Of a stretch of 64,000 nt of DNA, positions 19,009 through 35,297 are shown piece by piece. The notes beneath the pieces are model-generated. The model did not search any database, was not told where the DNA came from, and saw only the letters and a list, made by a program, of their open reading frames with translations. Made by a program: the position numbers and the translations under genes. This DNA comes from Candidatus Latescibacterota bacterium (GTDB lineage: Bacteria; Latescibacterota; UBA2968; SICM01): positions 4,800,001 through 4,864,000 of the forward strand of contig CBDCJO010000002.1 of the NCBI GenBank assembly GCA_965217865.1, written 5' to 3'. Positions within the stretch are counted from its first letter, which is position 1. Every line of letters starts with the position of its first letter.

Positions 19009-22000
19009 ATGAATTTAGTCGGGAAGAAGATTAAACACTTCGAGGTAAAGGAACTCATCGGTCGAGGGGCGATGGGCTCCGTCTATCGGGCTTACGACAA
19101 ATCGCTGGAACGCGATGTCGCCATCAAATTCCTTTCGTCCGAAACCCTCCCCGCTTCTCAGCAGATCGAACGGTTCTATAGGGAAGCAAAGGCGGCGGCC
19201 GGTCTTGTCCATCCGAATGTGATCGTCATTCACGATGTGGGTAAATTCGAGGGTACGTGTTACTTCGTGATGGAGCTTCTCCCCGGGAACTCTTTGCGGG
19301 ATATGATCCGGGAGGGCAGAAGGCCGGACTGGAAAGAAGGCCTTAAGATTATTGATCAAGTCTGTCGCGCCCTCGAAGCGGCTCATCGGTTGGGGCTCCT
19401 TCACCGGGACATCAAGGCGGACAATGTTTGGTTGATGCCCGATGGACATTGTAAGGTACTCGATTTTGGCATTGTACGTTTTTCGGCCGCCCAGTCGCTG
19501 ACCAGGACAGGGGAGACCCTGGGCACCCCGGAGTATATGGCCCCCGAACAGATTATGGGGGATCAGCTGGACGATCGGGCAGATGTATATGCCGTGGGGA
19601 TTCTTATGTACGAGCTGTTTACCGGGCAGCTTCCTTTCTACGGTCCGAATGCCGTTACCGTGATCTATAAACAGATGGAAGAGGATCCGACCCCGCCGGG
19701 AAAGCTTTCGAATGACATTCCCGAGGCCGTAGAAAAAATTATCCTCAAGGCCATGAACAAGGATCCCGGGCAGCGGTATCCCTCCGCCAAGCAGATGAGG
19801 ATTGAAATCGAAGCCATACTTGAAGGCCGGCCGATAGAGTCTGAATTCAAAGGGGATCCAGAATCTCTTACGGCGGAAAAAAAGCCAGGCTTGAAAGAGA
19901 AGGGGGGCGGACGCTTCGAATGCCGACTCGTGGGAAGAGAAGATGAAATGAAGGCGTTGAAAGCGTCATTTGATATTCGTGAGGGGGATCAGCGGCCGGT
20001 GGTTCTGATAGGCGGAGAGGCCGGGATCGGAAAGACACGATTGTCCATGGAAGCCCTCGATTACGCGCGCAGGAAAGGATTTTTAACCCTCCAGGGGTCC
20101 TGCCTTTTCACGGAAGGACCGGAACCCTACCTTCCTTTCATCGAGGCCATCGGTCAGTATCTGGAATCAAGAGATGAGGGAGAACATCAGAGATTGGACA
20201 AATTTATCAGGGACGAGGCTCCAGAGCTGAAGGAGTTGATCCCCCGCTTTAGGACGATGATCCGCACCCGACGCACGATGAGTTTGATCCATCCCGATAA
20301 AACGATCGCCACATCAAGGGAACGTCTTTTCGAAGCCATCACGCAAGTGCTTTTATTTCTCTCCCGGGGAACCCCGGTTTGTCTCCTTCTCGAGGACCTT
20401 CAATGGGCGGACAGCGGAAGTCTGCAGCTCCTGTATTATATCGGACGAACCGCCAAGGCGCAATCCATGATCATCCTGGGTACTTACCGGGTCGAGGATC
20501 TGATTCCTGACACCGATGGAACCCCCCATTCCCTCTTAGAGACGATGCAGCGAATGAGCAGGGAGGAGATCTTTCGGAAAATTGAATTGAAGGGATTGGG
20601 TTTTGAAGCGACGAATTTACTGGTAAGGTTCATTTTCAGGAGGAATATGTTTTCCGCCGGATTCCGGGCTTCTCTCTACAAAGAGACCAGCGGAAATCCC
20701 CTTTTCATTATCGAAGTGTTAAAGCTCCTGCGAGACGATGGCGTCATCTCCGAAAGGAAAGGGATCTGGCGGGAACGGCGGGAGATAACATCAGGTGACA
20801 TTCCGGAGAGGGTCTATGACGTTGTCGTCCGACGAGTGGAACGCCTGAATGAAGATGACAGGGAGTTGCTTCAGATTGCAGCCGTTGCCGGAGATAAATT
20901 CACTTCACAAGCCCTTACGAATGTCTCGGAAATGAAACGCCTCAACGTGCTTAAAGCCTTGAATAGGCTTGAACGAGCTTATCAGCTTATCGGTTCCGAG
21001 GGCCAGGCTTACGGTTTCACGCATCCGAAGACACGAGAGGTCCTCTATGAAGAAATCTCACCCGAACTTCGGAGGGAATATCATCTGGCTTTCGGTACTT
21101 ACTTGGAGGGGGGGGCAGTCGGGAAAAAGAGGGAATTGGTGGTCGACCTGGCTCGACACTTCTATTATGGGGGCGCCTTCAAAAAAGCCACACCCTACCT
21201 GATCCGTGCGGGGGATCGGGCAGGAGGGGTGTTCGCGTATCCCGAAGCCCGCAATTTCTTCGAGTGGGCCCTGGAGACTCTAGGAGATGGTGATTCAGAT
21301 AAGCGGAATAATCTGGAGTGTTCTCTTCATTACCGCCTCGGGGATATCTACAATCGCCTTGGGGATACTCAAAAAGGGTTAAGTCATCTGAAAATTTCCG
21401 AGGATTTGGCAAAACAAAAAGATGATTTTCGGATGGAAGCCCAGGTTCAACAGCGGATGGGTCATATTTTTTTTCGATCGGGAGGGTATGATCGGGCAAC
21501 CGAGCGATACGAAAAAAGCGCGGACAACTTCCGACGAATAGATGACCGGGAAGCCTTATGCCGGGTGCTCGTCGACGCGGCTAAGATCCCGTTCGAGCAG
21601 GGGGACTGGAAGGGGGTAAAGGCCTACTACACCCCGGCACTCCGGATCGCCCGGCAGGTGGGGGATCGAAGCCAGATGGCCATCATTTACATGAATTCCG
21701 GCATCATGGCCAGTATCCAAGGCGAGTTGGAACGGGCACTGCATCGCTATGGAAAAAGCAGGAAGATTTTCGAGGAGTTGAAAGAATGGCGAAACCTGGC
21801 AAGACTCTGGCTCAACCAGGGATGGTCCCTTGCGGGCCGGAAAGAATGGGGTAAAGCGAGAGAGGCTTATCATCATGCCCTTAAGATATCTAAAAAAACG
21901 AGAGATATTTTCAGTGAGTCAGAGTGCTATCTCAATGTGGCGGAGGTTTTGCTAGCTACGTCGGATCTGAAAGGATCCAAAAAGGCCTGTTTGAAGGCGC

Positions 22001-22338
22001 TTGAGATCTTCGAAAAGGTGAATGACCAGTTATGTATTGCGGATGTCTTTAAAACCTTGGGTCAGGTGGCGACCGTCGAGCGAAAGTGGGAAGAGGGCCA
22101 TTCTTACTTCAAGAAAAGCATCTCCGTAAATGAGTCCCTTAAAAATCTTCTGGGGGCGGGAGGGGCCCATATGGAATATTCACGGATGCTCAAAGGTCTT
22201 GGAAACCTCGATGGGGCATTGACCGAACTGGAAAGATCGATGACATGCTTTCAAACCATCAATGCCAAAGAAGATCTAAAAATTGCGGAGGAATTAAAAA
22301 AAGAGGTGGAGGCCCTTCACTATCTTGCTCAGCCTTGA
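19009..22338 (+). CDS. Ser/Thr protein kinase - AAA/STAND ATPase - TPR fusion
   Basis: GRGAMG, VAIK, HRDIKADN, DFG, GTPEYMAPE. 'LVGREDE', Walker A GEAGIGKT, Walker B 'LLLEDLQWAD', 'GNPLF'. C-terminal TPR array. Confidence 0.93.
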   Translation: MNLVGKKIKHFEVKELIGRGAMGSVYRAYDKSLERDVAIKFLSSETLPASQQIERFYREAKAAAGLVHPNVIVIHDVGKFEGTCYFVMELLPGNSLRDMIREGRRPDWKEGLKIIDQVCRALEAAHRLGLLHRDIKADNVWLMPDGHCKVLDFGIVRFSAAQSLTRTGETLGTPEYMAPEQIMGDQLDDRADVYAVGILMYELFTGQLPFYGPNAVTVIYKQMEEDPTPPGKLSNDIPEAVEKIILKAMNKDPGQRYPSAKQMRIEIEAILEGRPIESEFKGDPESLTAEKKPGLKEKGGGRFECRLVGREDEMKALKASFDIREGDQRPVVLIGGEAGIGKTRLSMEALDYARRKGFLTLQGSCLFTEGPEPYLPFIEAIGQYLESRDEGEHQRLDKFIRDEAPELKELIPRFRTMIRTRRTMSLIHPDKTIATSRERLFEAITQVLLFLSRGTPVCLLLEDLQWADSGSLQLLYYIGRTAKAQSMIILGTYRVEDLIPDTDGTPHSLLETMQRMSREEIFRKIELKGLGFEATNLLVRFIFRRNMFSAGFRASLYKETSGNPLFIIEVLKLLRDDGVISERKGIWRERREITSGDIPERVYDVVVRRVERLNEDDRELLQIAAVAGDKFTSQALTNVSEMKRLNVLKALNRLERAYQLIGSEGQAYGFTHPKTREVLYEEISPELRREYHLAFGTYLEGGAVGKKRELVVDLARHFYYGGAFKKATPYLIRAGDRAGGVFAYPEARNFFEWALETLGDGDSDKRNNLECSLHYRLGDIYNRLGDTQKGLSHLKISEDLAKQKDDFRMEAQVQQRMGHIFFRSGGYDRATERYEKSADNFRRIDDREALCRVLVDAAKIPFEQGDWKGVKAYYTPALRIARQVGDRSQMAIIYMNSGIMASIQGELERALHRYGKSRKIFEELKEWRNLARLWLNQGWSLAGRKEWGKAREAYHHALKISKKTRDIFSESECYLNVAEVLLATSDLKGSKKACLKALEIFEKVNDQLCIADVFKTLGQVATVERKWEEGHSYFKKSISVNESLKNLLGAGGAHMEYSRMLKGLGNLDGALTELERSMTCFQTINAKEDLKIAEELKKEVEALHYLAQP

Positions 22339-22414
22339 GAAGGCGCTCCGTCCGATGTGGAATTGAGAGAAAGGAATTTAATGTTTTCGCAAAAACCCGT
22401 CGGGGGGTAACGGA

Positions 22415-23431
22415 ATGGATGAGAAGAAAAATAAAGATCTGGAATCCCGGGTCTCGGTATTGGAGCTTGAGCGGGCGGCCATGCTGGATGAGCTTGAGGC
22501 TGTCTATGTTCAGATGGAAGAACATTTGTCCGCTGCAAGGCTTGAACGCGAGATCGCATATCAAGGCTTGAGGGAACGGAACCTGGAGCTGGAGCAACGC
22601 CTTACCGAGCTGAAGAAGGCGCTTCACGATCTCCAGGAGACACAGCAGATGCTGATCCGTTCCGCACGCCTCGCCGCAATGGGCGAGATGGCCGCGGCAA
22701 TGGTTCACGAGGTCAGAAATCCGCTATCCGTTATCATCGGAAGCGCTGAACTTTTAAGGATGGGAGGCGGGGATCCTCAGAAAGATCTGGAACGCCTCCT
22801 GAAAGCGAGCCAATACCTCAGAGACCTATCGCACAATATCCTCCAGTTTTCTCGTCATCATCGAGGGAAGGCCAGCGACCTCGATCTCAATGGCCTTATC
22901 GCTAAACTAGAAGCCCTTGTCAAACCGCTTTTCAAGACTGTGGAGCTTCGATTGGCCCTCAGGGGTGGCCTTCCCCGGGTCCGGGTCGATCCCAACCAGA
23001 TCGAACAGGTCATCATGAACCTGATCCTCAACGCGCTGGACGCGGTGGGAGACAGGGGTCGTATACAGGTGGGAACCGGAACGGGTTCGATCCAAACTGC
23101 GGTGGCGGAAGAGATCCGGACCGGCCGATATTGGGCCCTCGCGGTCGAGACCGACGAGGAGGTCCAGGCCGCAGAATGTGTATATGCAGAGGTTCAGGAC
23201 AATGGACCCGGAATCCACAAAGCTCATATGACCCGTCTCTTTGAATCCTTTTTCACGACAAAAGGTGAGGAAAAGGGGACCGGTCTGGGCCTCTCGATTT
23301 CCAGGACGATCCTGTCGGAGTTGGGGGGGAACATTCTGGTCGCGTCTTCGGAAGGAAGCGGTACGACCTTCAAGGTGTTTTTACCTTGTTTGGAGGATAA
23401 GGACGAGAGTGGAACCGAGCGAGATGAGTAA
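22415..23431 (+). CDS. Cytoplasmic histidine kinase (coiled coil + HisKA + HATPase), no sensor domain
   Basis: H-box HEVRNPL, N-box 'NLILNALDA', 'DNGPGI', 'FFTTK', 'GTGLGL'. Confidence 0.92.
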   Translation: MDEKKNKDLESRVSVLELERAAMLDELEAVYVQMEEHLSAARLEREIAYQGLRERNLELEQRLTELKKALHDLQETQQMLIRSARLAAMGEMAAAMVHEVRNPLSVIIGSAELLRMGGGDPQKDLERLLKASQYLRDLSHNILQFSRHHRGKASDLDLNGLIAKLEALVKPLFKTVELRLALRGGLPRVRVDPNQIEQVIMNLILNALDAVGDRGRIQVGTGTGSIQTAVAEEIRTGRYWALAVETDEEVQAAECVYAEVQDNGPGIHKAHMTRLFESFFTTKGEEKGTGLGLSISRTILSELGGNILVASSEGSGTTFKVFLPCLEDKDESGTERDE

Positions 23432-23975
23432 GCCGGAAAAAAATAAAAGCGTCTTGATTGTCGATAACGATCGGGATGTCAGAGATATCTTGCAAGGGCT
23501 TATCACACACCAGGGTCACGATGTGCTGACCGCCCAGCGGGCTTCGGATGCCGCCAAGATCATCGGCAGCAAGCCCGTCGATCTCCTTCTGCTGGATATT
23601 CGAATGCCGGGGCCTCACGGACATCACCTGCTCACTTATCTGAAGAAAAGAAATAAAAACGTCCCTCCCACGATTGTCGTTTCCGGTTTTCTAGAGGAGG
23701 AATTGATTCCGGAATTGATCCGGTTGGGAGTCAACGGTATCGTTGCCAAACCATTTGACCCCAAACGCCTTTGTGAAGAGATCGGCCTTGCGTTGGAGGG
23801 GGTATCTGAGGAGATTCAGATTTGCGCACAATGTGGTCAGTCCACCAAAGCGGGTGATCGGTTCTGCAGGAGATGCGGTAAAGAGATTGTCTTCAACAGG
23901 AAGTGCAAAAGTTGCGATAAGGAATACCAGGAGGGTGACCTGTTCTGTGGGGGATGTGGATTGAAACTCCGATAA
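23424..23975 (+). CDS. Response regulator receiver fused to a double zinc ribbon
   Basis: ATG at 23424 overlaps the kinase stop. 'LIVDND', 'LLDIRMP', 'KPF'. Four CxxC pairs. Confidence 0.88.
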   Translation: MSKPEKNKSVLIVDNDRDVRDILQGLITHQGHDVLTAQRASDAAKIIGSKPVDLLLLDIRMPGPHGHHLLTYLKKRNKNVPPTIVVSGFLEEELIPELIRLGVNGIVAKPFDPKRLCEEIGLALEGVSEEIQICAQCGQSTKAGDRFCRRCGKEIVFNRKCKSCDKEYQEGDLFCGGCGLKLR

Positions 23976-24010
23976 TGGAGATTGGGGGATCTTTTTATGA
24001 GGATTATCTC

Positions 24011-24307
24011 ATGACATATTGTCCTCGTTGCAGTTCAGAGCACGAACCGGAAGATCTTTACTGTCCTCAGTGCGGGCAGCGACTCTCTTCCTACGATTCA
24101 AAAGAGGGGCCGATCGGCACCCAGAGAACAATGGAGTTGTACGGGGTGCAGTACAGGCTGGGAATCGTATACTTTAAGAAGGGAGACTACGGTCGTGCTT
24201 TGGAGGTATGGGAAAGGGCCCTCAGGGAGCGGCCCAATGACGAGGAACTAAAGAATTTGATCCGGGATGCCAGGAACCGTCAGGATAAGGCGGGAGGTAA
24301 ACCATGA
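24011..24307 (+). CDS. Zinc ribbon + TPR protein
   Basis: 'CPRC...CPQCG', 'YRLGIVYFKKGDYGRALEVWERAL...P'. Confidence 0.8.
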   Translation: MTYCPRCSSEHEPEDLYCPQCGQRLSSYDSKEGPIGTQRTMELYGVQYRLGIVYFKKGDYGRALEVWERALRERPNDEELKNLIRDARNRQDKAGGKP

Positions 24308-24681
24308 TTCTCTGTGTACACTGCGGGAAGCAGAATAAGAACAACAATCAATTTTGTACATCCTGTGGCTCCAGGTTGACCGAAGATGGTTGTCTGGTAG
24401 CACGCCTTGTGATGCTGAGCGAGGAGCGCTCAAGAGAGTATCTTGTCTCGGATGCGGAACGTTTTGTCGGCCGGGATTCCTCCAACGATATCGTCCTCGA
24501 CGATGACAAGGCCTCCGGACGCCATATGAAAGTCGCGTGTGTCGAAGGAGGTTTTTGGGTGGAGGATCTTGGAGCCACAAACGGGACCTACGTGAATGGG
24601 GAAAGAATCCAGGGCCCGACGAAGTTAAAAAATGAAGATCTGGTGAAAGTCGGAAGGACAATTTTCAAGTTTGTCATCTGA
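24304..24681 (+). CDS. Zinc ribbon + FHA domain protein
   Basis: 'CVHCG...FCTSCG'. FHA motifs 'VGR', 'SGRH', 'DLGATNGTYVNG'. Confidence 0.9.
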   Translation: MILCVHCGKQNKNNNQFCTSCGSRLTEDGCLVARLVMLSEERSREYLVSDAERFVGRDSSNDIVLDDDKASGRHMKVACVEGGFWVEDLGATNGTYVNGERIQGPTKLKNEDLVKVGRTIFKFVI

Positions 24682-24747
24682 ATCCGATCGAAAGTTGAAA
24701 GGTCCTAACTTCCTCCGGTTTCCGGAGATTCAGGACAGAGGTGGGAG

Positions 24748-26199
24748 ATGTCCAAGAGCGTAATGGTCATCGATGACGACCCGACGTTGTGCAAATTGCT
24801 CGTTCGAATATTGAGCCAGCTGGATTATCGTATCCGGACAGCCTGCTCCGGGGAGAAAGGCCTTGAGATGTGTGAGGAAGAGATGCCCAATGTGGTCCTT
24901 CTTGACCTCAGCCTTCCGGGGGTTAGCGGAATGGAGACTTTGCGCCGGATCAAGGAGATGGACGGGGCATGCCGGGTGGTGATGATTACGGGCTACGCCA
25001 CGGTCCCATCAGCAGTGGAGGCCATGAAGATCGGAGCGGAGGATTATATAACCAAACCGTTTCTTCATGAGGACCTCCGCGCCCTGGTGGCAGAGCTGGT
25101 TGAACAGTCATCTTCCGGTAAAACGGAAAAGGGAAGGGGGCTGGATTTTATCCTGGGCGAGAGCCCGTCGATGGAAAAGGTCTTTGAGATCATCCATCGT
25201 GTATCTCGGACGTCCGCCACCGTGTTGATCGCAGGGGAGAGCGGTACGAGAAAAGAACTGGTGGCTCAGGCCATTCATCAGAACAGCCAGCAGAAGGATA
25301 AACCGTTCTTGTCGATCAACTCGGCTTCCATTCCTGCCAACCTTCTGGAAGCGGAGTTGTTTGGATATGAAAAAGGCGCATTCACCGATGCGAAAAAACA
25401 GAAGAAGGGTTTGGTTGAGATCGCAGAAAGGGGTTCGCTTTTCCTGGACGAAATCGGACTGATGCCAAAAGACCTGCAGGGAAAGATCCTTACCGTTCTG
25501 GAGACCGGGGGATTTCGACGGTTGGGCGGTACTGAAGAACTCGTATCGGATGCCCGGTTCATCGCTGCGACCAACCGCGACCTGGCTGAGGCCGTTAATA
25601 TTGGAGAGTTCAGGGAGGATCTCTACTATCGTCTGAACGTTATCCCCATCCACATCCCTCCGCTCCGTGAAAGGGGGGACGACATCCTCCTTCTCGCTCG
25701 CCATTTCCTGGAGGAATCGGGCCGGCGCTATGGGGTCCCCTACAGGGGGCTGTCTGCAGAGGCCGAGGCTTTGTTGAAAACCTACCCCTGGGGAGGGAAC
25801 GTACGTGAGCTTAAGAATGTGATCGAACGCGCAGTGTTGTTGACGGATGGTCCCACGATTGACGGACCGAACCTTTCCATCGACCGGCGCGAAAGCCCAT
25901 CCAGCCCAGACCGGATCGAGCCCATCGAGGTCTCGGATGTTGGTTTAATCCGCATCTCCTTCCCGCCCTGGGGGCTCCCTGTGGATGATCTGGAAGCACA
26001 GGTTATAAAAGAGGCCTTGAATCAAACGGAGGGAAATATTTCACGGGCTGCGAAACTTCTGCATCTCAGCCGTTACGCCCTCCGATACCGAATGAAAAAG
26101 GTCCGGAAGGCGGAACTCGCCATTGCCTTTGGAAGACACAAAGGTGCTTATCTTGAAAGATGCCCAACCGGAGAACTGCGTACTTCAAGTACCGGTTAA
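24748..26199 (+). CDS. Sigma54-dependent (NtrC/AtoC family) response regulator
   Basis: REC domain, Walker A variant GESGTRKE, 'ELFGYEKGAFTDA', 'LFLDEIG', 'FREDLYYRLNV', 'WGGNVREL', Fis-type HTH. Confidence 0.92.
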   Translation: MSKSVMVIDDDPTLCKLLVRILSQLDYRIRTACSGEKGLEMCEEEMPNVVLLDLSLPGVSGMETLRRIKEMDGACRVVMITGYATVPSAVEAMKIGAEDYITKPFLHEDLRALVAELVEQSSSGKTEKGRGLDFILGESPSMEKVFEIIHRVSRTSATVLIAGESGTRKELVAQAIHQNSQQKDKPFLSINSASIPANLLEAELFGYEKGAFTDAKKQKKGLVEIAERGSLFLDEIGLMPKDLQGKILTVLETGGFRRLGGTEELVSDARFIAATNRDLAEAVNIGEFREDLYYRLNVIPIHIPPLRERGDDILLLARHFLEESGRRYGVPYRGLSAEAEALLKTYPWGGNVRELKNVIERAVLLTDGPTIDGPNLSIDRRESPSSPDRIEPIEVSDVGLIRISFPPWGLPVDDLEAQVIKEALNQTEGNISRAAKLLHLSRYALRYRMKKVRKAELAIAFGRHKGAYLERCPTGELRTSSTG

Positions 26200-26647
26200 T
26201 CGCAGGATTGGGGAAACGGGAGGATCCTGTACCGGAGCAGGTGATACGGGATCGAACCCAATACGGTTAGTGATCCTAATTTCGGACGACGATGTGGATT
26301 CCTGCATAAGGCATCTGCCAGAAAAGTGCCTGCAGCAGTCTGACGAGTTCTCAAAATAGGGACTACAGGGTAGACCCATAGTCGGGGGGGCCGGTCGGGG
26401 AAGGTCCTGTCTACGCATCTCAAACCAAAGTTGGAGGAAAATTCCAGGGTCGATCATTATAAAAAATCCGTCAGGGATTGATTAAAGGGTATCTCACTGC
26501 AAGGAATATGCATCCACGCGTTGGCGAGAGGATGCGTTTAGAATATTCTCCTGTCGATGCAGGATCAATCCTTTTTCCGTTATCCAACCCTAAAAACGAA
26601 TGTCCCTTTTCCCCAAGGTCTCCACAGTCTTTTTAGGAGGATTTTTG

Positions 26648-27385
26648 ATGTTCGGTAACCATTACAGTCCTAAGAAAGCATTCTGTTTTATGATTACTCT
26701 GGCGGGAATTTTTCTATTCACAGGATGCGGGATTCTGAACCAAAATCCGCTTGCCCCCCCGGCCAGGGCCAAACCTCAGGCGGGAGTGAAGTCCGCTTCG
26801 AACCCGGGTCTTTTTGCGATCACATTCTCCCCCCACGGGTTGAATCCTACAACCCAGGCGACCAAGCCCTCTGGTGGGAGTTTATACACCAAGACGGCTT
26901 CGGGTTGGTTTTCTCCTGAAAGCAGCGGGGAGTTGAAAGTAAAGTTTAAATATGACGGTGATGATGACGACGACGATGGCGATGACATTTTGCGTGTTGA
27001 GAAGGCAAAGTTCAAGGTGGAGGAAGGGTCTATCGATCAGGACGTTGAGATCACGATGACCGTTCAATCCGGAACCACCCTCGAGGATGTCGGGGTCCTG
27101 TTCAGCTCCGCGGGCCAGGAATTTTATCCCTACGCCAAGCTTACTCTCTTTCTGGATGGGGAGCTTGACGAGGAGAATCTCGGTAGTATAAAGGCTTATC
27201 ATATCGAAGGGGATTCGGTAACGGAGCTTTCCGTCAAAATCTCTGAGCGCGATGATGATGAGTGGAAGATCATCGTGGAGGTTCCGGGCTTCTCCCGCTA
27301 CTCTCTGGGCGGCAACGACGCCGAACCCGGTACCGAAGAATGGGAATCAGAGGAATATGCTGAAACCTATGACGGTAGCAATTGA
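26648..27385 (+). CDS. Acidic lipoprotein of unknown function
   Basis: GGAGG before ATG 26648, lipobox 'FTGC', poly-Asp tract, C-terminal 'VEVPGFSRYSLG'. Confidence 0.7.
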   Translation: MFGNHYSPKKAFCFMITLAGIFLFTGCGILNQNPLAPPARAKPQAGVKSASNPGLFAITFSPHGLNPTTQATKPSGGSLYTKTASGWFSPESSGELKVKFKYDGDDDDDDGDDILRVEKAKFKVEEGSIDQDVEITMTVQSGTTLEDVGVLFSSAGQEFYPYAKLTLFLDGELDEENLGSIKAYHIEGDSVTELSVKISERDDDEWKIIVEVPGFSRYSLGGNDAEPGTEEWESEEYAETYDGSN

Positions 27386-27514
27386 GAAGGGTATATATTC
27401 CAAATGGGGTGTCGAATTCTACCATGAAGAATAAACAAAGTCGGGTTAAGGACCTCAAAGGTTATTTCCCTTTTCACAAAAGGTCTTTGGCTGATATCGA
27501 TAAGGAGTATCAAG

Positions 27515-28711
27515 TTGGAATATAATCCAGACATCGAATCCTTGGTACGACAGCTGACCGATTTCAACACAGAGGTGCAGGTTCAGGATCTGCTTAAAGC
27601 CGTCCTGACCGAGCCGATGCCGACCGAGGAGAGACTCCGCCAGATTGAGCGGGCCCTGGAGACCTTCAAAGAATTCGGTGTGTTGGGGAGGGATGATGGG
27701 CAGGACCTCCATCTGCTGTTCAATCTCGGGCATACCTACGAACGGCTTTCTCACCTGGAGAAGGCCCAGGAAATATACCAGACGGCCCTTCCCATCGCCG
27801 AACGGATAAAAGACGAGGGGAGTCGGGCCGCACTGTTAAACCGGGTGGGAAAAGTGCTATCTCGATGGAATCGCTGGAAGGAGGCTTTGGATCACCTGGA
27901 CAGAAGCTTTGAGCTTTACCGGGATTTGGGAGATGAACAGGGTCAAGGTCGCTCTCTGGTGAATAAAGGAATCATTTTTCACGAACAGGGAGATTATGAG
28001 TCCGCTTCTGAAGCTTACCAGATAGCGTTGGATCTCGCTCAGGGAGTCGGCGACAGGAAGACGATAGCCGATTCGAGCAACAACATGGCCGTTCTGGCCT
28101 CGATCCGGGGGGATTTTGATGATGCCATTGCGAGGTATCAAACCTGTCTGACGATGTATCAGGAGGCGAATGACAGCCTCGGATTGGCCCGAACCTATCA
28201 CAATCTGGGTATGACCCACGGGCACAAACGGGATTGGAACGCAGCAATGGATAGCTACGAACGCGGATATGATATCGCACAGGAAAAAGGTCTCCTGGAT
28301 GTGATGGCCAATATCATGTTGAGCCGAGCCGAGCTGCTGCTGGAACTCGGAGATACCGCGATCGCCGCACACTGCTCCGCCCGTGCCCTCGATATCTATA
28401 GAAAAACGGAGGATCACCTCGGCGAGGGGGACTCATATCGGCTGCTTGGCAGGTTGTTTACGGTGCGGGAGCAGTGGACCACAGCCTTAAGCCTGTTCCA
28501 GGACAGTATCCGTTTGAACGAGGAATACTCGAATCCCCTGGGGTTGGCGGAGGCCCATCGGGACATGGGGAGGATGTTCGCGGTCAGGGGACATTCGACG
28601 GAGGCCCGTGAGGCCTATGAGGTGGCCGTATCGGGGTTCCAGCAATTGGGTGCCCAGGCGGATGTGGGACAGGTCGGAAGGCTAATCGAGGAATTGAGCA
28701 ATGCCGGATAA
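27515..28711 (+). CDS. Tetratricopeptide repeat protein (MalT-type TPRs)
   Basis: AAGGAG before TTG start. Repeated TPR units such as 'LARTYHNLGM'. Confidence 0.88.
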   Translation: MEYNPDIESLVRQLTDFNTEVQVQDLLKAVLTEPMPTEERLRQIERALETFKEFGVLGRDDGQDLHLLFNLGHTYERLSHLEKAQEIYQTALPIAERIKDEGSRAALLNRVGKVLSRWNRWKEALDHLDRSFELYRDLGDEQGQGRSLVNKGIIFHEQGDYESASEAYQIALDLAQGVGDRKTIADSSNNMAVLASIRGDFDDAIARYQTCLTMYQEANDSLGLARTYHNLGMTHGHKRDWNAAMDSYERGYDIAQEKGLLDVMANIMLSRAELLLELGDTAIAAHCSARALDIYRKTEDHLGEGDSYRLLGRLFTVREQWTTALSLFQDSIRLNEEYSNPLGLAEAHRDMGRMFAVRGHSTEAREAYEVAVSGFQQLGAQADVGQVGRLIEELSNAG

Positions 28712-28787
28712 GGATGTTTTCCCCCAGGTTTTATGAACCGACTTCGGGATCTTTCGTACGCAAGGTTTATCCTGAACAAAATCGAAC

Positions 28788-28822
28788 AAAAAAGCCCTCG
28801 GTACTTTGCCGAGGGCTTTTTT
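28788..28822. terminator. Bidirectional intrinsic terminator
   Basis: AAAAAAGCCCTCGG-tactttg-CCGAGGGCTTTTTT between convergent genes. Confidence 0.9.
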
Positions 28823-28892
28823 GTTGAATCAGGTTGTTCGTTGTCTGAGTGGGTTAGATTTTGATAAATAAGAAAGTATTATTCCTCACCCC

Positions 28893-29444
28893 TCAATGGT
28901 TGAACAGCGTGACGTTAGGGACATGATTGACCGGAAGGACTTTCAGGGTATCCTGGTGTGGCGGGGAGAGGATGCAGTGGAGGTCTACCTCTTCTTCCTC
29001 CGAAAGCAAGACTTCGGATCCGTTCGGTCCAAGAGCTGATCGGCGGTGATGGCTCACCGTCGCATAGATCGACTCGCATCGATGGACCACCAGAACGTTC
29101 GAACCGGCCATCATGAGTATCCCCTTACGCTCGTTCTGATAATCCGTTTCCAGGGTGTGATTTTGGTAAGCCAGAAACCAGTCACGCCCAATCTGCCTGT
29201 TCATCCACTGATTCCACTGGTCCACGGCACAATCGCGGGCGATCGTGGCCCCGGTCATAGTGCTTTTGTCGGCCTCCGGGAGCCCAAGGGAACCCGCGTG
29301 AGTGAAAAACTGCCATTCCCGGGTCGTGTTCCAGAGGAACGTATAGATATCTTCTTTGTTTGCAGGGCCCACGAGATCGTTGCATCGCATGGCGGTTTCC
29401 CTGTGCTGGTCTACCAAAAAAACTATCAGTTTGGATAGGCAACC
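28893..29444 (-). pseudogene. 3' remnant of an unknown gene truncated by the IS
   Basis: Protein-like 174-aa ORF whose upstream continuation (LPIQTDSF...) needs a 1-nt correction in the A7 run at 29416-29422 and then stops at the IS end. Confidence 0.5.
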
Positions 29445-30979
29445 CTATCAGCCCGTTGAAGAACTACCTTTCAACACACATAAACGGAAAAGACGCCTGG
29501 AGTGCGGGTCGGATAAATCAAGGTAAGGAGATTGAGCAGGAGACGCTGATAAGAGGTTAAAAAGGTGACCGAGGGCAGCAAAGCGTGATTGTAGGACGAG
29601 CAGTAGACGCTGCAAGGCCTTGGCCAGGTCCTGGAGGGCCTTCGGAGTACCTACGCCCATCACTTTGCGCATGAGCAGAGCCAGGTTGCAGCCCCCGATG
29701 TGGATCAGCAAACGCTTGAGGATATTGCCGCGGTCTCTCAAGTGCAACCTGCGCATGCCACCGGTATCATATGTGTGAGCGATGGTTCTTTCCACCCGTT
29801 CTGCACGACTTCGGCGCAAGGCCTTGCCGCGATCTCCCTTGATCCGGCGTCGATTCGCATATACCGCGGCCTGCTCATCTCGTCGGCCGTTCCACTTGCG
29901 GCGTCCCCGATCCGGTTCTGAAATGTAACTCCGGATGCCGCCTTGCTTCAGACTGGTCAATACATCGTTGCTATGATATCCTTTGTCCGCAACCACCTCC
30001 CGTATACGCTGTCTGTGCAAACGCTTAGCAGCTTTTTCGTCCTTCGCGACCTGCTTGAGATTGAGCTGCGCCTCGAGCAGCGTCCAGGACAACGACTCGG
30101 TATCTCCTTCATCTGCTCCCGACAACGCCACTGCCACAATGGCATTGGTGTCCAGATCCACCGCGTGCTCCACCTTGTGCGCCATGTGCGTGCGACCGTC
30201 CTTCATCTTAGCGATCTTGGCATCCGGGTCGTGCGGGTGCTCCCAGTCCTGGTTCGATCCCTTCTTCGGTCGCTTCTTATCGATCTTGGACAAGTCCTCG
30301 CGGGTAGGCGTTTCAATGCCCGAGGCCTTGGCCAGATTCTCAAGGAATGCCTGGTAGCCTTCACCCGTGTCACGGCGTACAATGCTGCGCATCGCGGCGT
30401 TGGCCTCCAGTGTCGTAGCATCCACGCCCAACGTCTTCCCCTTCACCAGACCCGCTTTGCACAAGACCCTCAGGATCCACTTGAAAACCGCTTCGTGAAC
30501 TTCCAAGGGAAGCCGATGCCGGATGCGAGACAGGCTGGAATGATCCGGGGTCTGTTCGTCAAGGGCATACCCCAAAAACCGGCGCAACGTCAGCGAGTCA
30601 GATACACGCCATTCGATCCCACGTTCCGAATCAAGTCCCTCGAAATACCCAATCAAAAGCATCCGAAAATAAACCCCGGGCGGAATGCCCTTGCGACCCA
30701 TATGAGGAGCGTAATACCGCTGGCAAAGCCCTTCGACGAACTCGTCGAACCCGTTCGCCTCCAATACCTGATTCAGCTTCTCGTAGAACGGATGACCCGG
30801 AGATTTCACCAAAGTGTTCGATGCGATGAACAGGTTTTCCTGTCTCTGTCGTCCTCGTTTTCCCATTGCCATTTGCTCGTCCTCCCTTCTCAGTTTGAAC
30901 CTGATATATCATAGGACCAAACCACAAGGAAAGACAACAGTCATCTTGGCATAAACGCACTTTTTCAACAGGCTGTTAG
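29445..30979 (-). mobile_element. Insertion sequence, IS1182/IS5-type DDE element
   Basis: Imperfect terminal IRs CTATCAGCCCGTTGAAGAACT (29445-29465) and CTAACAGCCTGTTGAAAAAGT (reverse complement of 30959-30979) enclose the transposase. Confidence 0.85.
29448..30872 (-). CDS. DDE transposase (DUF772 + DDE_Tnp_1 type)
   Basis: 'GRKGIPP', 'SERGIE', 'PDHSSLSR', 'VDATTLEANA', 'HDPDA', 'ADKGYHS', 'VER'. Confidence 0.93.
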   Translation of the reverse strand: MAMGKRGRQRQENLFIASNTLVKSPGHPFYEKLNQVLEANGFDEFVEGLCQRYYAPHMGRKGIPPGVYFRMLLIGYFEGLDSERGIEWRVSDSLTLRRFLGYALDEQTPDHSSLSRIRHRLPLEVHEAVFKWILRVLCKAGLVKGKTLGVDATTLEANAAMRSIVRRDTGEGYQAFLENLAKASGIETPTREDLSKIDKKRPKKGSNQDWEHPHDPDAKIAKMKDGRTHMAHKVEHAVDLDTNAIVAVALSGADEGDTESLSWTLLEAQLNLKQVAKDEKAAKRLHRQRIREVVADKGYHSNDVLTSLKQGGIRSYISEPDRGRRKWNGRRDEQAAVYANRRRIKGDRGKALRRSRAERVERTIAHTYDTGGMRRLHLRDRGNILKRLLIHIGGCNLALLMRKVMGVGTPKALQDLAKALQRLLLVLQSRFAALGHLFNLLSASPAQSPYLDLSDPHSRRLFRLCVLKGSSSTG

Positions 30980-32576: not shown

Positions 32577-35297
32577 CTAACTATCGCGGAATACCTTTCG
32601 ATCAGCGGTAGTCTGCCGTTTAATTTGCATTTTCCATTTTTCACTTTTCATTTCCCCGTTGACCTCCGATCTCTGGCCTCTTACACCCTGACTTTGGTGG
32701 CCGACGGCCAGCCTCCCGTCCTCCAGGCCGATTGTGATCCGGGCGCCGGCTTCGATCTCTCCTCCGATGATGGATCGTCCAATTCGGGTCTCGAGCTCCC
32801 GCTGCAGGAACCGCTTGAGCGGGCGGGCGCCGTAGACCGGATCGAAACTCTCCCGGGCGATGAACGCCCGCGCCGTATCGCTCATCTCCAGATGAATTCC
32901 CTGATCCTCCAGGCGTTCCGTCAATTCCTCGGTCAGCAGATCCACGATTTTCTCGATTTCGTCCAGCCTCAGGGGTTTGAAGAGCACGATGTCATCAACC
33001 CGGTTTAGAAACTCCGGCCGGAAGTGCTCTTGCATCTCCCGAATCACCGCGTCGCGGGCGTTCTCCTGTATCCGGCCGTCTTCGGTCACACCCTCCAGCA
33101 AGTCCGGTGAGCCGACGTTGGAGGTCAAGATGATCACGGTGTTTTTGAAATCGACCGTTCGACCCTGAGCGTCCGTCAGGCGCCCATCGTCGAGGATCTG
33201 GAGGAGTATGTTGAAGACGTCGTGATGGGCTTTTTCGATTTCATCGAAGAGGAGCACCGAAAAAGGCTTTCTACGCACGGCCTCGGTCAGCTGGCCGCCC
33301 TCCTCATAACCCACATATCCCGGAGGGGCGCCGACCAGTCGCGATATAGTATGCTTTTCCATGTATTCGCTCATGTCGATGCGGACCATATTCTCCTCGC
33401 TGTCGAACAGCGTCTCGGCCAGGGTCTTCGCCAGCTCTGTTTTACCCACACCCGTCGGTCCCAGGAATATGAACGAACCGATCGGCCGACGCGGGTCATT
33501 GATGCCCGCCCGCGCGCGTATCACCGCATCGGCAACGAGAGAGACGGCTTCGTCCTGGCCCACCACCCGTCGGTGTAAAATCTCATCCAGGCGCAGAAGC
33601 TTCTCCCGCTCCCCCTCCACAAGGCGGGTCAAGGGGATTCCGGTCCAGCGGGACACGATCTCGGCGATCTCGTCTTCCGTCACTTCCTCCCTGAGGAGCC
33701 GGGTCCCTTCCTGTTGTCCGTTCATGTTTTCCTCGTGTCCCTTCAAACGCCGCTCCAGTTCGGGGAGGCGCCCGTGCTTCAGCTCGGCTGCGCGGTTCAG
33801 GTCGTACTTGCGCTCGGCGTCCTCGATCTCTCGACGCATCTGCTCGATCTCCTCGCGGAAACCGCGGACCTCCTGGATGGCCTCCTTCTCCGCCTCCCAC
33901 TGGGCGCGCATTCCATCGGCTTGTGTCTTCAGGTCGGCAAGCTCCTTTTCCAATATTTCCAGCCGTTCCTTGCTCGCCTTGTCCTTTTCTTTCTTTAGCG
34001 CGGCCTTTTCGATCTCCAGCTGCATCACCCGGCGGGTCGTCTGATCCAATTCCGCGGGCATCGAGTCGATCTCGGTACGGACCATCGCGCAGGCTTCGTC
34101 CACCAGGTCGATCGCCTTATCTGGCAGGAAACGGTCGGATATATAACGATTTGAGAGCACGGCGGCGTTCACTAGGGCGTTGTCCTGGATCCGGACCCCG
34201 TGATGCACCTCGAACCGCTCGCGGAGCCCCCTGAGGACCGAGATGGTGTCTTCAACGGAAGGAGGATCCACCATAACGGGCTGGAACCGCCGTTCGAGGG
34301 CGGCGTCCTTTTCGATATATTTGCGGTATTCGTCCAGAGTCGTCGCGCCGATGCAGTGCAGCTCCCCACGGGCGAGCATGGGCTTGAGCATATTACCCGC
34401 ATCGGTGGATCCTTCTGTCCGGCCGGCCCCCACAATATTGTGGACTTCGTCGATGAACAGGAGGATTCGGCCTTCACTCTGTTTGATTTCGTTCAGGACG
34501 GCCTTGAGTCGCTCCTCGAACTCACCCCGGTACTTTGCTCCGGCCATGAGCGCGCCCATGTCCAGGGAAAAGATCGACCGCTCTTTCAACCATTCGGGCA
34601 CATCGCCCCGGACGATTCGCTGGGCAAGCCCCTCGACGATTGCGGTCTTACCCACACCGGGTTCTCCGATCAAAACGGGGTTGTTCTTCGTCTTCCGGGA
34701 GAGAATCCGAACGACACGGCGGATCTCCGAATCGCGCCCGATCACAGGATCCAGTTTCCCCCTTTGGGCCAGTGAAACCAGGTCGGTCCCATATTTCTCC
34801 AGGGCTTCGTAGGCCGCCTCGGGCATCGCGCTGGTCACCCTCTGGTTTCCGCGCAGTTTTGTGAGAGCAGACAGAAAATCTTCCCGGGTCACCTTTAACC
34901 TGTTCAGGATCTTACCCGACGGAGTCGAATTCCCCTCCCCGATCAGCGCGAGGGTGAGGTGCTCCACGGATACATATTCGTCTTTGAGCCGCTTGGACTC
35001 GTCCTCGGCCTGAACGAACAGCCTCTGAAAACGTTGGGTCACATAAATCTTATCCGCCTCTCTCCCAGGCCCCGAGACTTGGGGACGGCGGCTCACCTCC
35101 TGTTCAATCTCCTTTTGAAGGGCATCGACCGGGACGTCCATCCGCTCCAGGATTCGAGGAAAAACCCCGCCGGCTTGTTCGAGCAGAGCCAGGAGCAGAT
35201 GTTCCCCATCCACCTCCTGGTGTCCGTAGCGCAAAGCTTTTGTTTGCGCGGACTGCAAGGCTTCCTGGGATTTCTGTGTCAATCTGTTGATGTCCAT
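32577..35297 (-). CDS. clpB: ATP-dependent chaperone ClpB
   Basis: 'LDPVIGRD', GEPGVGKT, '[13 protein letters not shown]', M-domain coiled coil, GPTGVGKT, 'GAPPGYVGY', 'YGARPLKR'. Confidence 0.97.

Follow-up and report, generated by a model that had tools for sequence, protein, structure and literature searches.

The window, the 64,000-nucleotide stretch of a Candidatus Latescibacterota genome analysed here, carries a signalling gene cluster that is a conserved unit, a conclusion of which we are nearly certain, with a fixed core of three proteins: a kinase-STAND-TPR protein, ZnR-TPR and ZnR-FHA. Literature searches found no matching described system, in agreement with the sequence-only reading of this DNA, which knew of no named system with such an arrangement, and the unit is apparently undescribed. 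In the circuit that we propose, the kinase would phosphorylate Thr37 of ZnR-TPR, ZnR-FHA would bind the phosphothreonine, and this switch would control a sigma-54 activator that would transcribe the gene of a ZU5 lipoprotein; the lipoprotein would then cut off its own C-terminal peptide, which would return to the cytoplasm as the ligand of the kinase. Taken as a whole, we give this circuit slightly less than an even prospect of being correct.

All eight genes of the cluster are real. ORF and Pfam analysis agreed with the eight co-oriented genes and the domains first described for them, the overlapping stops and starts at 23424-23431 and 24304-24307 are present in the sequence, and the terminator claimed at 28788-28822 was recovered as a hairpin (Table 1). 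Two starts differ from those first given: that of ZnR-TPR is most likely 24011, judging from the ribosome site and the starts of homologues, and that of the lipoprotein was corrected to 26648. The eight genes probably form two transcription units, because in relatives the lipoprotein gene is preceded by a sigma-54 promoter. Features that the sequence-only reading had not pointed out are the predicted self-cleavage site in the ZU5 fold, a sigma-54 promoter with its enhancer, a peptide importer in relatives, and the damage to the activator of this strain.

Table 1. Features of the cluster, in window coordinates.
Feature	Position	Strand	Basis
Hanks kinase - STAND (AAA_16) ATPase - TPR, 1109 aa; predicted receptor	19009..22338	+	Pfam, motif conservation, hydropathy
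Cytoplasmic His kinase, H98, HisKA+HATPase, N-terminal coiled-coil-like segment	22415..23431	+	Pfam, alignment
REC (D58) - double zinc ribbon (REC-DZR); putative accessory phosphoacceptor	23424..23975	+	Pfam
ZnR - disordered linker - single TPR hairpin + capping helix (ZnR-TPR), 98 aa; predicted kinase substrate/adaptor	24011..24307	+	Pfam, alignment, model
Thr37 codon of ZnR-TPR, candidate phospho-site	24119..24121	+	alignment, linker pLDDT
ZnR-FHA, 125 aa, pThr-binding residues present	24304..24681	+	alignment
NtrC-type sigma-54 activator, REC-AAA-HTH, GAFTDA loop; damaged allele here	24748..26199	+	Pfam, tree
Walker A Gly168 to Arg in activator	25249..25251	+	alignment
Junction of ~548-bp deletion, C-terminal end of activator	26100..26102		comparison with runs X4, X7
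Lipoprotein, lipobox Cys codon 26726, ZU5-like beta-sandwich, C-terminal GF-S + 30-aa tail	26648..27385	+	model, fold search, alignment
Phe215-Ser216 codons, predicted self-cleavage site	27290..27295	+	fold alignment
Stand-alone TPR protein, 398 aa; possible decoy or co-receptor	27515..28711	+	Pfam, sequence comparison
Bidirectional, intrinsic-terminator-like hairpin	28785..28825		17 pairs, A/T runs both sides

The gene-neighbourhood search that had been suggested for this cluster found the homologues co-located far beyond chance, in 30 loci altogether, all counted over related genomes that are not independent samples. Of 168 Latescibacterota genomes, 11 hold the cluster, at 12 loci (this genome has two); a second phylum, labelled KSB1/Calditrichota, has it in 14 of 167 genomes, and four metagenome contigs carry it as well. 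Around the fixed core, the His kinase/receiver arm is optional. Both FHA domains of the 6.4-Mb genome sit in its two cluster copies, as do two of its three full-length Pkinase matches. In G001 the kinase, the His kinase and ZnR-TPR with Thr37 are present and ZnR-FHA was not found.

The proposed switch centres on the linker threonine of ZnR-TPR, which is kept in 98 of 100 homologues (19/19, a further 66/66, and 13/15 in the second phylum; the family comprises 73 clusters) and replaced by Ser in 0/85 first-set sequences; the second-phylum exceptions have Glu (G609) or Pro (the second copy of G482) at this offset. Thr37 lies six residues before the first helix, and residues 28-40 have a pLDDT below 50. 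The pThr-binding residues of ZnR-FHA, R57, S71, H74 and N93, are invariant (15/15), and no conserved Thr was found in the linker between its ribbon and FHA domain, the invariant Thr being on ZnR-TPR instead. FHA domains are established as specific for phosphothreonine (PMC4601284, in the part available). From the alignments, Thr37 is a likely FHA ligand, and we consider the binding step itself reasonably probable. A unit that links a STAND kinase, an FHA reader and sigma-54 output, as put forward in the sequence-only reading, is supported, whereas nothing tested supports its zinc ribbons as signal carriers; the threonine of ZnR-TPR, read by the FHA domain in trans, is the better candidate.

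In the Latescibacterota, the switch would work through the coiled-coil His kinase, a weakly predicted partner of ZnR-TPR, with phosphotransfer to the NtrC-type activator; REC-DZR, found in 7/16 first-set loci, would serve as a phosphate sink where present, and a PP2C, where present, would reset the switch. The His kinase had rightly been described as having a coiled-coil-like N-terminus as its only input: it has no hydrophobic helix (maximum 19-residue hydropathy 1.11), and L24, L27, Y31, E35, E44, Y49 and L52 of the N-terminal helical segment are invariant (17/17, and 15/15 across both phyla). Its ATPase domain carries an insert of ~25 aa. Complex prediction for two copies of the His kinase with ZnR-FHA and ZnR-TPR gave 0.41, against 0.02 for the best control (0.02 with the His kinase replaced), with contact agreement of at least 64% and partner pLDDT of at least 68; this points weakly to an interaction, the mark being met by 116/157 solved and 2/215 mismatched pairs, at 0.60 or below by only 18/157 and both mismatches, and the job being unlike the calibration. 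We regard the action of ZnR-TPR on the His kinase, suggested by this model, as evenly balanced. In the second phylum the switch would act directly on the activator, because the orthologue there has no receiver domain, the His kinase is seldom present (2/167 genomes, against 14 with the core) and an Opp-type importer is in the operon; loss of the His kinase goes with loss of the receiver domain. The His-Asp relay envisaged earlier is an optional part.

In the tree, the activator groups in one clade (97/95) with 7 cluster activators from Latescibacterota and 10 from the second phylum. A sigma-54 promoter precedes the lipoprotein in 11 of 15 testable loci, with sites of at least 10 bits before the first lipoprotein in 6/10 (null 2-3%) and 5/5 (null 0.5%); tandem GGG-N8-CCC palindromes were found in 6/10 loci, one per locus, against 4 matches in 6.43 Mb, and RpoN is encoded in the genome. 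Judging from these motifs, the activator very probably drives the lipoprotein promoter. The window allele retains its REC, AAA and HTH domains and carries Walker A G168R, the position being Gly, and Walker A intact, in the other 12 of 13 aligned activators, with Gly also in runs X4 and X7. The contig of run X7 has 548 letters between the flanks and run X4 diverges after 26100; the deletion replaced the C-terminal tail of the activator and probably removed the enhancer and promoter too, and neither a sigma-54 site nor a tandem palindrome was found before the lipoprotein in the window copy. The activator arm of the window is probably dead in this strain, whose second cluster copy has an intact activator.

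The earlier identification of the lipoprotein was kept. A fold search with its model (mean pLDDT 68.5) returned ZU5 domains as the top four matches, with Z values of 8.7 (rmsd 2.6, 110 aligned), 8.3, 8.0 and 7.3, followed by GAIN domains; Foldseek returned nothing at E <= 0.001. Residues 82-215 of the model align with NLRP1 1096-1212, 81-215 with Nup98 722-863 and 80-216 with Nup145 857-994, and F215-S216 stands where these ranges end, aligned with the self-cleavage sites of NLRP1 and Nup98; matches to self-cleaving members were weaker, at Z 3.8-6.8, and values below 8 are common. The best matches are the ZU5 domains of ankyrin and ZO-1, which are not known to self-cleave. F[ST] occurs in all full-length family members inspected. 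In the second phylum, 13/13 lipoproteins end in HF-S plus 8-9 residues; the Latescibacterota tails are varied, of 6-30 residues, and mostly follow GF-S rather than HF-S, with Gly before the Phe in the window protein as well. As far as the available text of PMC3210808 goes, Nup98 needed the His of HFS only marginally, and CARD8 has Ser in its place. On the model and alignments, we think self-cleavage at F-S quite probable.

A route by which the tail might return is found in the second phylum, where genes of an Opp-type oligopeptide importer directly follow ZnR-FHA in 13/14 loci and the clade of its binding protein occurs in 13/14 core-positive against 0/153 core-negative genomes. A search with the binding-protein query found this clade in 0/168 Latescibacterota genomes (the best match in the window genome scored 269 bits, where members of the clade score about 950), so that the ligand is inferred. 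We tentatively suggest that the tail peptide is the kinase ligand. The loop would then act as positive feedback, sensing density, or, should damage be needed to free the peptide from the ZU5 fold, as a tripwire. The most far-reaching reading, which we advance with caution and would not yet call probable, is peptide signalling in diderms assembled from parts known in the immune and adhesion receptors of animals: the short C-terminal peptide that a ZU5 lipoprotein cuts from itself would be imported and become the ligand of an NLR-like kinase, and a two-protein pThr switch would act through sigma-54 to make more precursor, as a quorum signal or an NLRP1-like envelope tripwire.

The same relay could serve another input, an explanation that we think possible but rather unlikely: the input of the STAND kinase would be a metabolite, a nutrient peptide taken up by import or a protein of the cytoplasm, much as MalT-type STAND proteins sense small ligands, and the lipoprotein would be only an output (surface remodelling or adhesion), its tail a structural strand. 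That the search found no dedicated importer in the genomes of the window's phylum agrees with this, as does the wider spread of the lipoprotein family, which occurs in 13 Latescibacterota genomes without ZnR-TPR (23/168); bacterial ZU5 domains are processing domains of surface proteins in the part available of PMC3482391, and the conservation of SRY may be structural, because a cut ZU5 strand can stay bound and stabilize the fold (PMC3210808, likewise in part). However, the lipoproteins are little more than a ZU5 domain, the tail being the only releasable passenger, and this tail has a set length of 8-9 residues in just those loci whose operon holds the dedicated importer.

The kinase keeps K40, E59, HRD, N139, DFG and activation-loop T165, and its STAND module keeps Walker A, D463/D468, GNP and H672, all invariant (10/10 aligned); the features of a STAND NTPase (Walker A, hhhhD-D Walker B, GxP motif, winged-helix His, C-terminal repeats) are all present. 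Hydropathy gave no membrane helix, and a TOMM kinase/cyclase profile matched residues 305-833 below its cut-off. The stand-alone TPR protein is 28% identical to the TPR region of the kinase, and the PDB sequence matches of the TPRs, 34 and 13 in number, were to LGN/Pins and kinesin light chain, with RRNPP entries absent from those listed. Kinase-STAND-TPR proteins are widespread in bacteria, and for almost none is a ligand known. That the TPR recognizes a phage or predator protein, like Avs proteins, with a transcriptional defence programme as output, seems to us improbable. The STAND-TPR architecture is common to antiphage pattern receptors (10.64898/2026.01.04.697583) and conflict systems repeatedly include ZU5 and STAND domains (PMC8195603), as far as the available parts of these sources go, and the distribution of the cluster is patchy; but locus comparisons found a killing effector in none of the 30 loci, the gene content is stable rather than effector-variable, and, by sequence, the window neighbours are topA, a tyrosine recombinase and hslVU. 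The PADLOC matches were no more than generic ones (kinase, RtcR-like and TPR), the best 25 of 36 all to the kinase domain, which identifies no defence-system STAND and lends nothing to the infection sensing suggested earlier.

A loose gathering of regulators, with kinase/FHA and His kinase/NtrC in parallel and the window copy a decaying relic, is very improbable: gene order and accessory genes do vary, breaks or frameshifts occur in several loci (the G039 REC-DZR, the G064 His kinase, and the lipoprotein and TPR copies of this genome's own paralogue) and the window activator is damaged, but the adjacent kinase and the block HK-(REC-DZR)-ZnR-TPR-ZnR-FHA are kept in two phyla at 25-60% identity, the His kinase lies between kinase and ZnR-TPR even in both second-phylum loci that keep it, and its loss is paired with that of the receiver domain.

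For the preferred circuit, the locus names a candidate ligand (a synthesizable 8-9-mer), substrate residue, reader and promoter, and each step is therefore testable with purified proteins. Even without the peptide step, the cluster would connect Ser/Thr phosphorylation to a sensorless His kinase and sigma-54 by a compact, dedicated path, of which a natural variant leaves out the His-Asp step.

Among known systems, RRNPP (Rap/Phr, NprR, PlcR) is the peptide signalling family closest to hand for comparison. The elements that we infer here are alike: an exported precursor, a short peptide, an Opp-type importer, a cytoplasmic TPR receptor and feedback on the precursor gene. Unlike RRNPP, the hosts are diderm, the precursor, a ZU5 lipoprotein with predicted self-cleavage, is a folded protein of 200-260 aa rather than a small pro-peptide processed by separate proteases, the receptor is a kinase-STAND protein, and the output runs via a pThr switch and sigma-54; if true, this would be peptide signalling outside Gram-positive models. 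The T6SS, or type VI secretion system, has a kinase, PP2C and FHA triad (PpkA-PppA-Fha1), and Myxococcus Esp has an FHA-His kinase with Ser/Thr input into a His kinase; both the triad and, as proposed, that input recur here, but with a soluble kinase instead of the T6SS membrane kinase and an FHA domain not fused to the His kinase. EspA/EspC profile matches were below cut-off, and secretion-system genes, a T6SS cluster included, were not among the listed neighbours of the loci. The genome itself encodes a fused kinase-STAND-TPR-GAF-sigma54 activator (C2:2588600-2595249), which shares a kinase-STAND-TPR sensor wired to a sigma-54 output but consists of a single polypeptide, and neither an FHA switch nor a His kinase or ZU5 lipoprotein was seen with it.

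PknG-OdhI/GarA, in the part available of PMC8546545, likewise has a soluble TPR-bearing kinase, an FHA protein and a Thr site in a flexible segment, and the ZnR-linker-FHA architecture occurs among actinobacterial matches, with Thr-rich linkers in cis. It differs in that here the candidate Thr and the FHA domain are on two proteins and the kinase has a STAND module; its target is 2-oxoglutarate dehydrogenase, whereas here the His kinase or the sigma-54 activator would be the target. PknK of Mycobacterium, a kinase-STAND protein acting on VirS, is also a soluble kinase with a C-terminal STAND of unknown signal and controls transcription; the available part of PMC4601284 mentions neither FHA/ZnR adaptors nor a His kinase, sigma-54 or a ZU5 lipoprotein alongside it. 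Finally, the FIIND of NLRP1/CARD8, PIDD, Nup98 and the GAIN domain of adhesion GPCRs share the ZU5-superfamily fold and F-S at the aligned position, according to the available parts of PMC3210808 and PMC3482391. In contrast to these, the protein described here is a small stand-alone bacterial lipoprotein with a tail of 6-30 residues, beside an NLR-like kinase and under putative sigma-54 control and, if the reading is true, a stand-alone ZU5 self-cleaving domain would have a bacterial function beside an NLR-like receptor, in parallel to NLRP1 and the adhesion GPCRs.

All eight open reading frames, their domains, both gene overlaps and the terminator described in the sequence-only reading are present in the window sequence, and only the lipoprotein, among the eight proteins, has a hydrophobic helix. 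The cluster is a real, conserved signalling system. The gene-neighbourhood search bore out the proposed unit, a ZnR-TPR profile (30 candidates scored per genome) matching 11 of 168 Latescibacterota genomes, in six of 14 families; the proteins of the same-phylum genomes carry the source label Ca. Latescibacterota. Full-length ZnR-TPR matches were found in four of 69 metagenome loci. Among the 16 loci of the first set (Latescibacterota genomes and metagenome contigs), whose counts overstate significance because kin are not independent, the kinase-STAND-TPR gene occurs in 12, the remaining four being contigs too short, the coiled-coil histidine kinase (HK) in 15, ZnR-FHA in 15 (it was not found in G001), the lipoprotein in 11, REC-DZR in seven, a kinase-less STAND-TPR gene in four and, by Pfam, PP2C in three. 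The window's genome (6.43 Mb) holds a second cluster copy, in which REC-REC replaces REC-DZR, the lipoprotein is frameshifted, two of three TPR copies are broken, and an NtrC and a receiver-less activator lie on the opposite strand; both FHA matches and two of the three full-length kinase matches in this genome fall within the two copies. A single-protein search with ZnR-TPR matched only itself, a pattern scan of genome contigs with ZnR-FHA returned generic FHA proteins only, and long TPR proteins dominated a representative-library search, with three full-length family members among the 150 matches listed. A search of 301 genomes from the phylum to which G168 belongs, with 16 candidates scored in each, found no ZnR-TPR; the G168 record is titled Gemmatimonadota, and one ZnR-TPR protein match carries that label.

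The profile also matched 14 of 167 genomes of a second phylum, that of G169, where the proteins are labelled Calditrichota or KSB1. The usual order there is lipoprotein(s), kinase-less STAND-TPR, TPR, kinase-STAND-TPR, ZnR-TPR and ZnR-FHA, followed by an SBP_bac_5 importer operon and then a receiver-less sigma-54 activator. Subject to the same non-independence of kin, ZnR-FHA is present in all 14 loci, the kinase in 11 (of the others, two contigs are cut and one locus is degenerate), importer genes in 13 (the contig of the other runs out) and the activator in 10; the importer of G523 is present as fragments only, and in G529 its binding protein lies on another contig. The importer binding proteins form one clade, with 52-79% identity, found in 13 of 14 genomes with the core (kinase-STAND-TPR, ZnR-TPR and ZnR-FHA) and in 0 of 153 without it, and set apart from the rest by a score gap (E <= 1e-196 versus >= 1e-122); this clade was not found in the 168 Latescibacterota genomes at E <= 1e-100. 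In two second-phylum loci the lipoproteins are separated from the kinase-less STAND gene by an HD-domain gene.

The His-Asp relay that had been proposed as part of the pathway is present in Latescibacterota loci but is optional, being mostly missing in the second phylum. The HK was found in only two of the 167 second-phylum genomes, inside the cluster both times, and in the tree built from 31 AAA-HTH regions, the 10 second-phylum activators without a receiver nested with eight Latescibacterota cluster activators, including that of the window (97/95), separately from eight other activators of the window's genome. Because the orthologous activators lack receivers where the HK is so rare, the two halves of the arm are missing together.

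None of the kinase and STAND motifs varies among the 10 aligned proteins, nor do the phosphothreonine-binding FHA residues vary among the 15 ZnR-FHA proteins. Ten columns of the ZnR-TPR alignment are invariant across 19 of 19 proteins, Thr37 among them. This residue lies in a variable linker, disordered in the model; it is Thr in all 66 further sequences (72 fetched, six removed as duplicates of aligned rows), and 13 of 15 second-phylum proteins have Thr at this offset. One protein of G609 has Glu there, a possible natural phosphomimic, with Thr residues three and four places earlier. A helix N-cap role for Thr37 is disfavoured by the lack of Ser, Asp or Asn substitutions and by the start of the helix at residue 43. 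From the alignments, the strict Thr at position 37 would fit an FHA ligand, phosphorylated and then captured by the FHA domain. Actinobacterial matches carry ribbon, Thr-rich linker and FHA within one chain, beside which the ZnR-TPR/ZnR-FHA pair looks like a GarA/OdhI-type switch divided between two proteins.

Such a switch would control the HK or the sigma-54 activator. For the link to the HK suggested in the sequence-only reading, complex prediction of an HK dimer together with ZnR-FHA and ZnR-TPR weakly supported ZnR-TPR binding to the HK (0.41, against 0.02 for the best control; contacts agreeing to 64% or more, partner pLDDT 68 or higher), and the score fell to 0.02 with the HK replaced; the prediction is uninformative on ZnR-TPR with unphosphorylated FHA. 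In calibration, 116 of 157 solved pairs and two of 215 mismatched ones reached the mark, 18 of the 157 and both mismatches doing so at 0.60 or under, and the HK complex is unlike the calibration set. The N-terminal segment of the HK has seven invariant residues, and all aligned homologues share an ATPase-domain insert, a possible docking surface.

The window's genome encodes RpoN. Using a matrix built on 26 sites of this genome, chosen by the sigma-54 consensus, we found a site of at least 10 bits no more than 500 nt from the Cys codon of the first lipoprotein in six of 10 first-set loci, against 2.1% of 3102 ORF-upstream windows. G027 (7.5 bits) and G064 (0.5 bits) fell under this mark, no site precedes the lipoprotein within 500 nt in the window copy or its paralogue, and G085, which has a consensus site, was excluded for lack of an anchor. 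In an out-of-sample test, all five second-phylum loci with full upstream sequence scored 11-21 bits (null 0.5%), four of them with the site 146-156 nt before the Cys; four more loci, with upstream sequence cut short, were outside the count. In G027, G039, G122, G158 (found by eye) and G085 the sigma-54 site is preceded, at a distance of 112-156 nt, by tandem GGG-N8-CCC palindromes spaced 17-19 bp from each other, against a background of four matches in 6.43 Mb; such palindromes also precede a receiver-less activator in G061, and are absent from four of the 10 first-set loci. Five second-phylum promoters had no GGG-N8-CCC upstream; promoters in that phylum have a different repeated palindrome-like motif (by eye only). 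A sigma-54-like string at about 26521 was rejected for its wrong spacing.

Three further receiver-less activators, all from Latescibacterota, form a second clade (100/97). Two of them sit behind the cluster's palindromes, so that an activator cascade is possible. At L107, upstream of 3344, an activator of another clade accompanies a different repeated palindrome before the sigma-54 site, which suggests that activator and enhancer were exchanged together.

In the window's activator, Arg replaces the Walker A Gly (G168R). Strain comparison covered four of the 17 runs listed, over 24700-26600. Sequencing error was rejected, the Arg being common to run X1 and one contig of run X2 and absent from X4 and X7. 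X1 equals the window sequence and may be its source, whereas X4 (depth 24) and X7 (depth 2) have Gly; X7 has 548 extra letters at 26100-26102, and X4 continues after this junction into a tail resembling those of homologues. Taken together, the Arg, the 548-letter difference and the changed tail indicate that the sigma-54 arm of the window copy is probably lost. In the paralogue the activator is intact, and at that locus a palindrome and a sigma-54 site precede the second, receiver-less activator.

The lipoprotein model (mean pLDDT 68.5) matched ZU5 domains best in a fold search (Z 8.7, 8.3, 8.0 and 7.3), followed by GAIN domains, UNC5b, the NLRP1 FIIND and Nup98/145, and the aligned ranges stop at F215/S216, its predicted self-cleavage site, against NLRP1 1212, Nup98 863 and Nup145 994. 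At E <= 0.001 Foldseek found nothing for this model; Pfam assigned the window protein to no family and gave ZU5 at E 0.15 in one of 13 family members, and a PDB profile search yielded only weak matches, to two 'conserved domain protein' entries. PMC3210808 gives the self-cleavage sites as HFS in Nup98 and PIDD, SF/S in CARD8 and S1213 in NLRP1, and ascribes a marginal role to the His before Phe. All 13 second-phylum lipoproteins end in HF/SRY plus five or six residues, and the Latescibacterota tails comprise 6-30 residues, mostly after GF. The family occurs in 23 of 168 Latescibacterota genomes, 13 of them without ZnR-TPR; G001, G078, G125 and G160 have tandem or multiple copies distant from any ZnR-TPR gene.

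The lipoprotein is predicted to cleave itself and might release a peptide that serves as the ligand, a peptide-feedback reading that we hold tentatively, leaning slightly towards doubt. The second phylum offers the best support for the peptide step. The case is weaker for the version in the window, where a general importer would be required; the window's genome has two SBP_bac_5-like genes.

Coordinates of features in the window, its genome (G000) and related loci
Feature	Location	Strand	Remark
Second cluster copy (L001)	G000:C2:4067000-4080219		
HK insert	window 23075-23165		about 25-30 residues (HK residues about 221-250)
ORF, 174 aa	window 28893-29417	minus	between terminator and IS; no Pfam match
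IS transposase	window 29448-30872		DUF772 + DDE_Tnp_1; directly after terminator
Full-consensus sigma-54 site	window 35453	minus	upstream of clpB-like gene
clpB-like gene	window 32577-35297		
Second-clade activator	L001:10040-11041		
Second-clade activator	L184:12010-13278		
Second-clade activator	L107:4313-5410		
ZnR-TPR with Glu at Thr37 offset	L203:7858-8145		G609
HD-domain gene	L206:17607-18455		
HD-domain gene	L207:1564-2412		
Fused kinase-AAA_16-TPR-GAF-sigma54 AAA-HTH gene (L191)	G000:C2:2588600-2595249		split by IS

The IS beside the window cluster has near-identical copies elsewhere in the genome, suggesting an active element; the same IS splits the fused gene at L191, with a second copy just upstream.

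The absence of a named counterpart, as the sequence-only reading had it, held in PADLOC to the extent that no system-specific assignment was made, with only generic kinase, RtcR-like and TPR models matching; NCBIfam likewise made none, scores among the matches listed being under curated cut-offs. A published description was not found in full-text literature searches, which mostly do not cover subscription papers, and supplements to surveys of STAND or conflict systems may list such neighbourhoods; the cluster is apparently an undescribed signalling system. By the tests applied it does not belong to RRNPP peptide signalling, PknG-OdhI or NtrC, and its workings would be a blend of the three.
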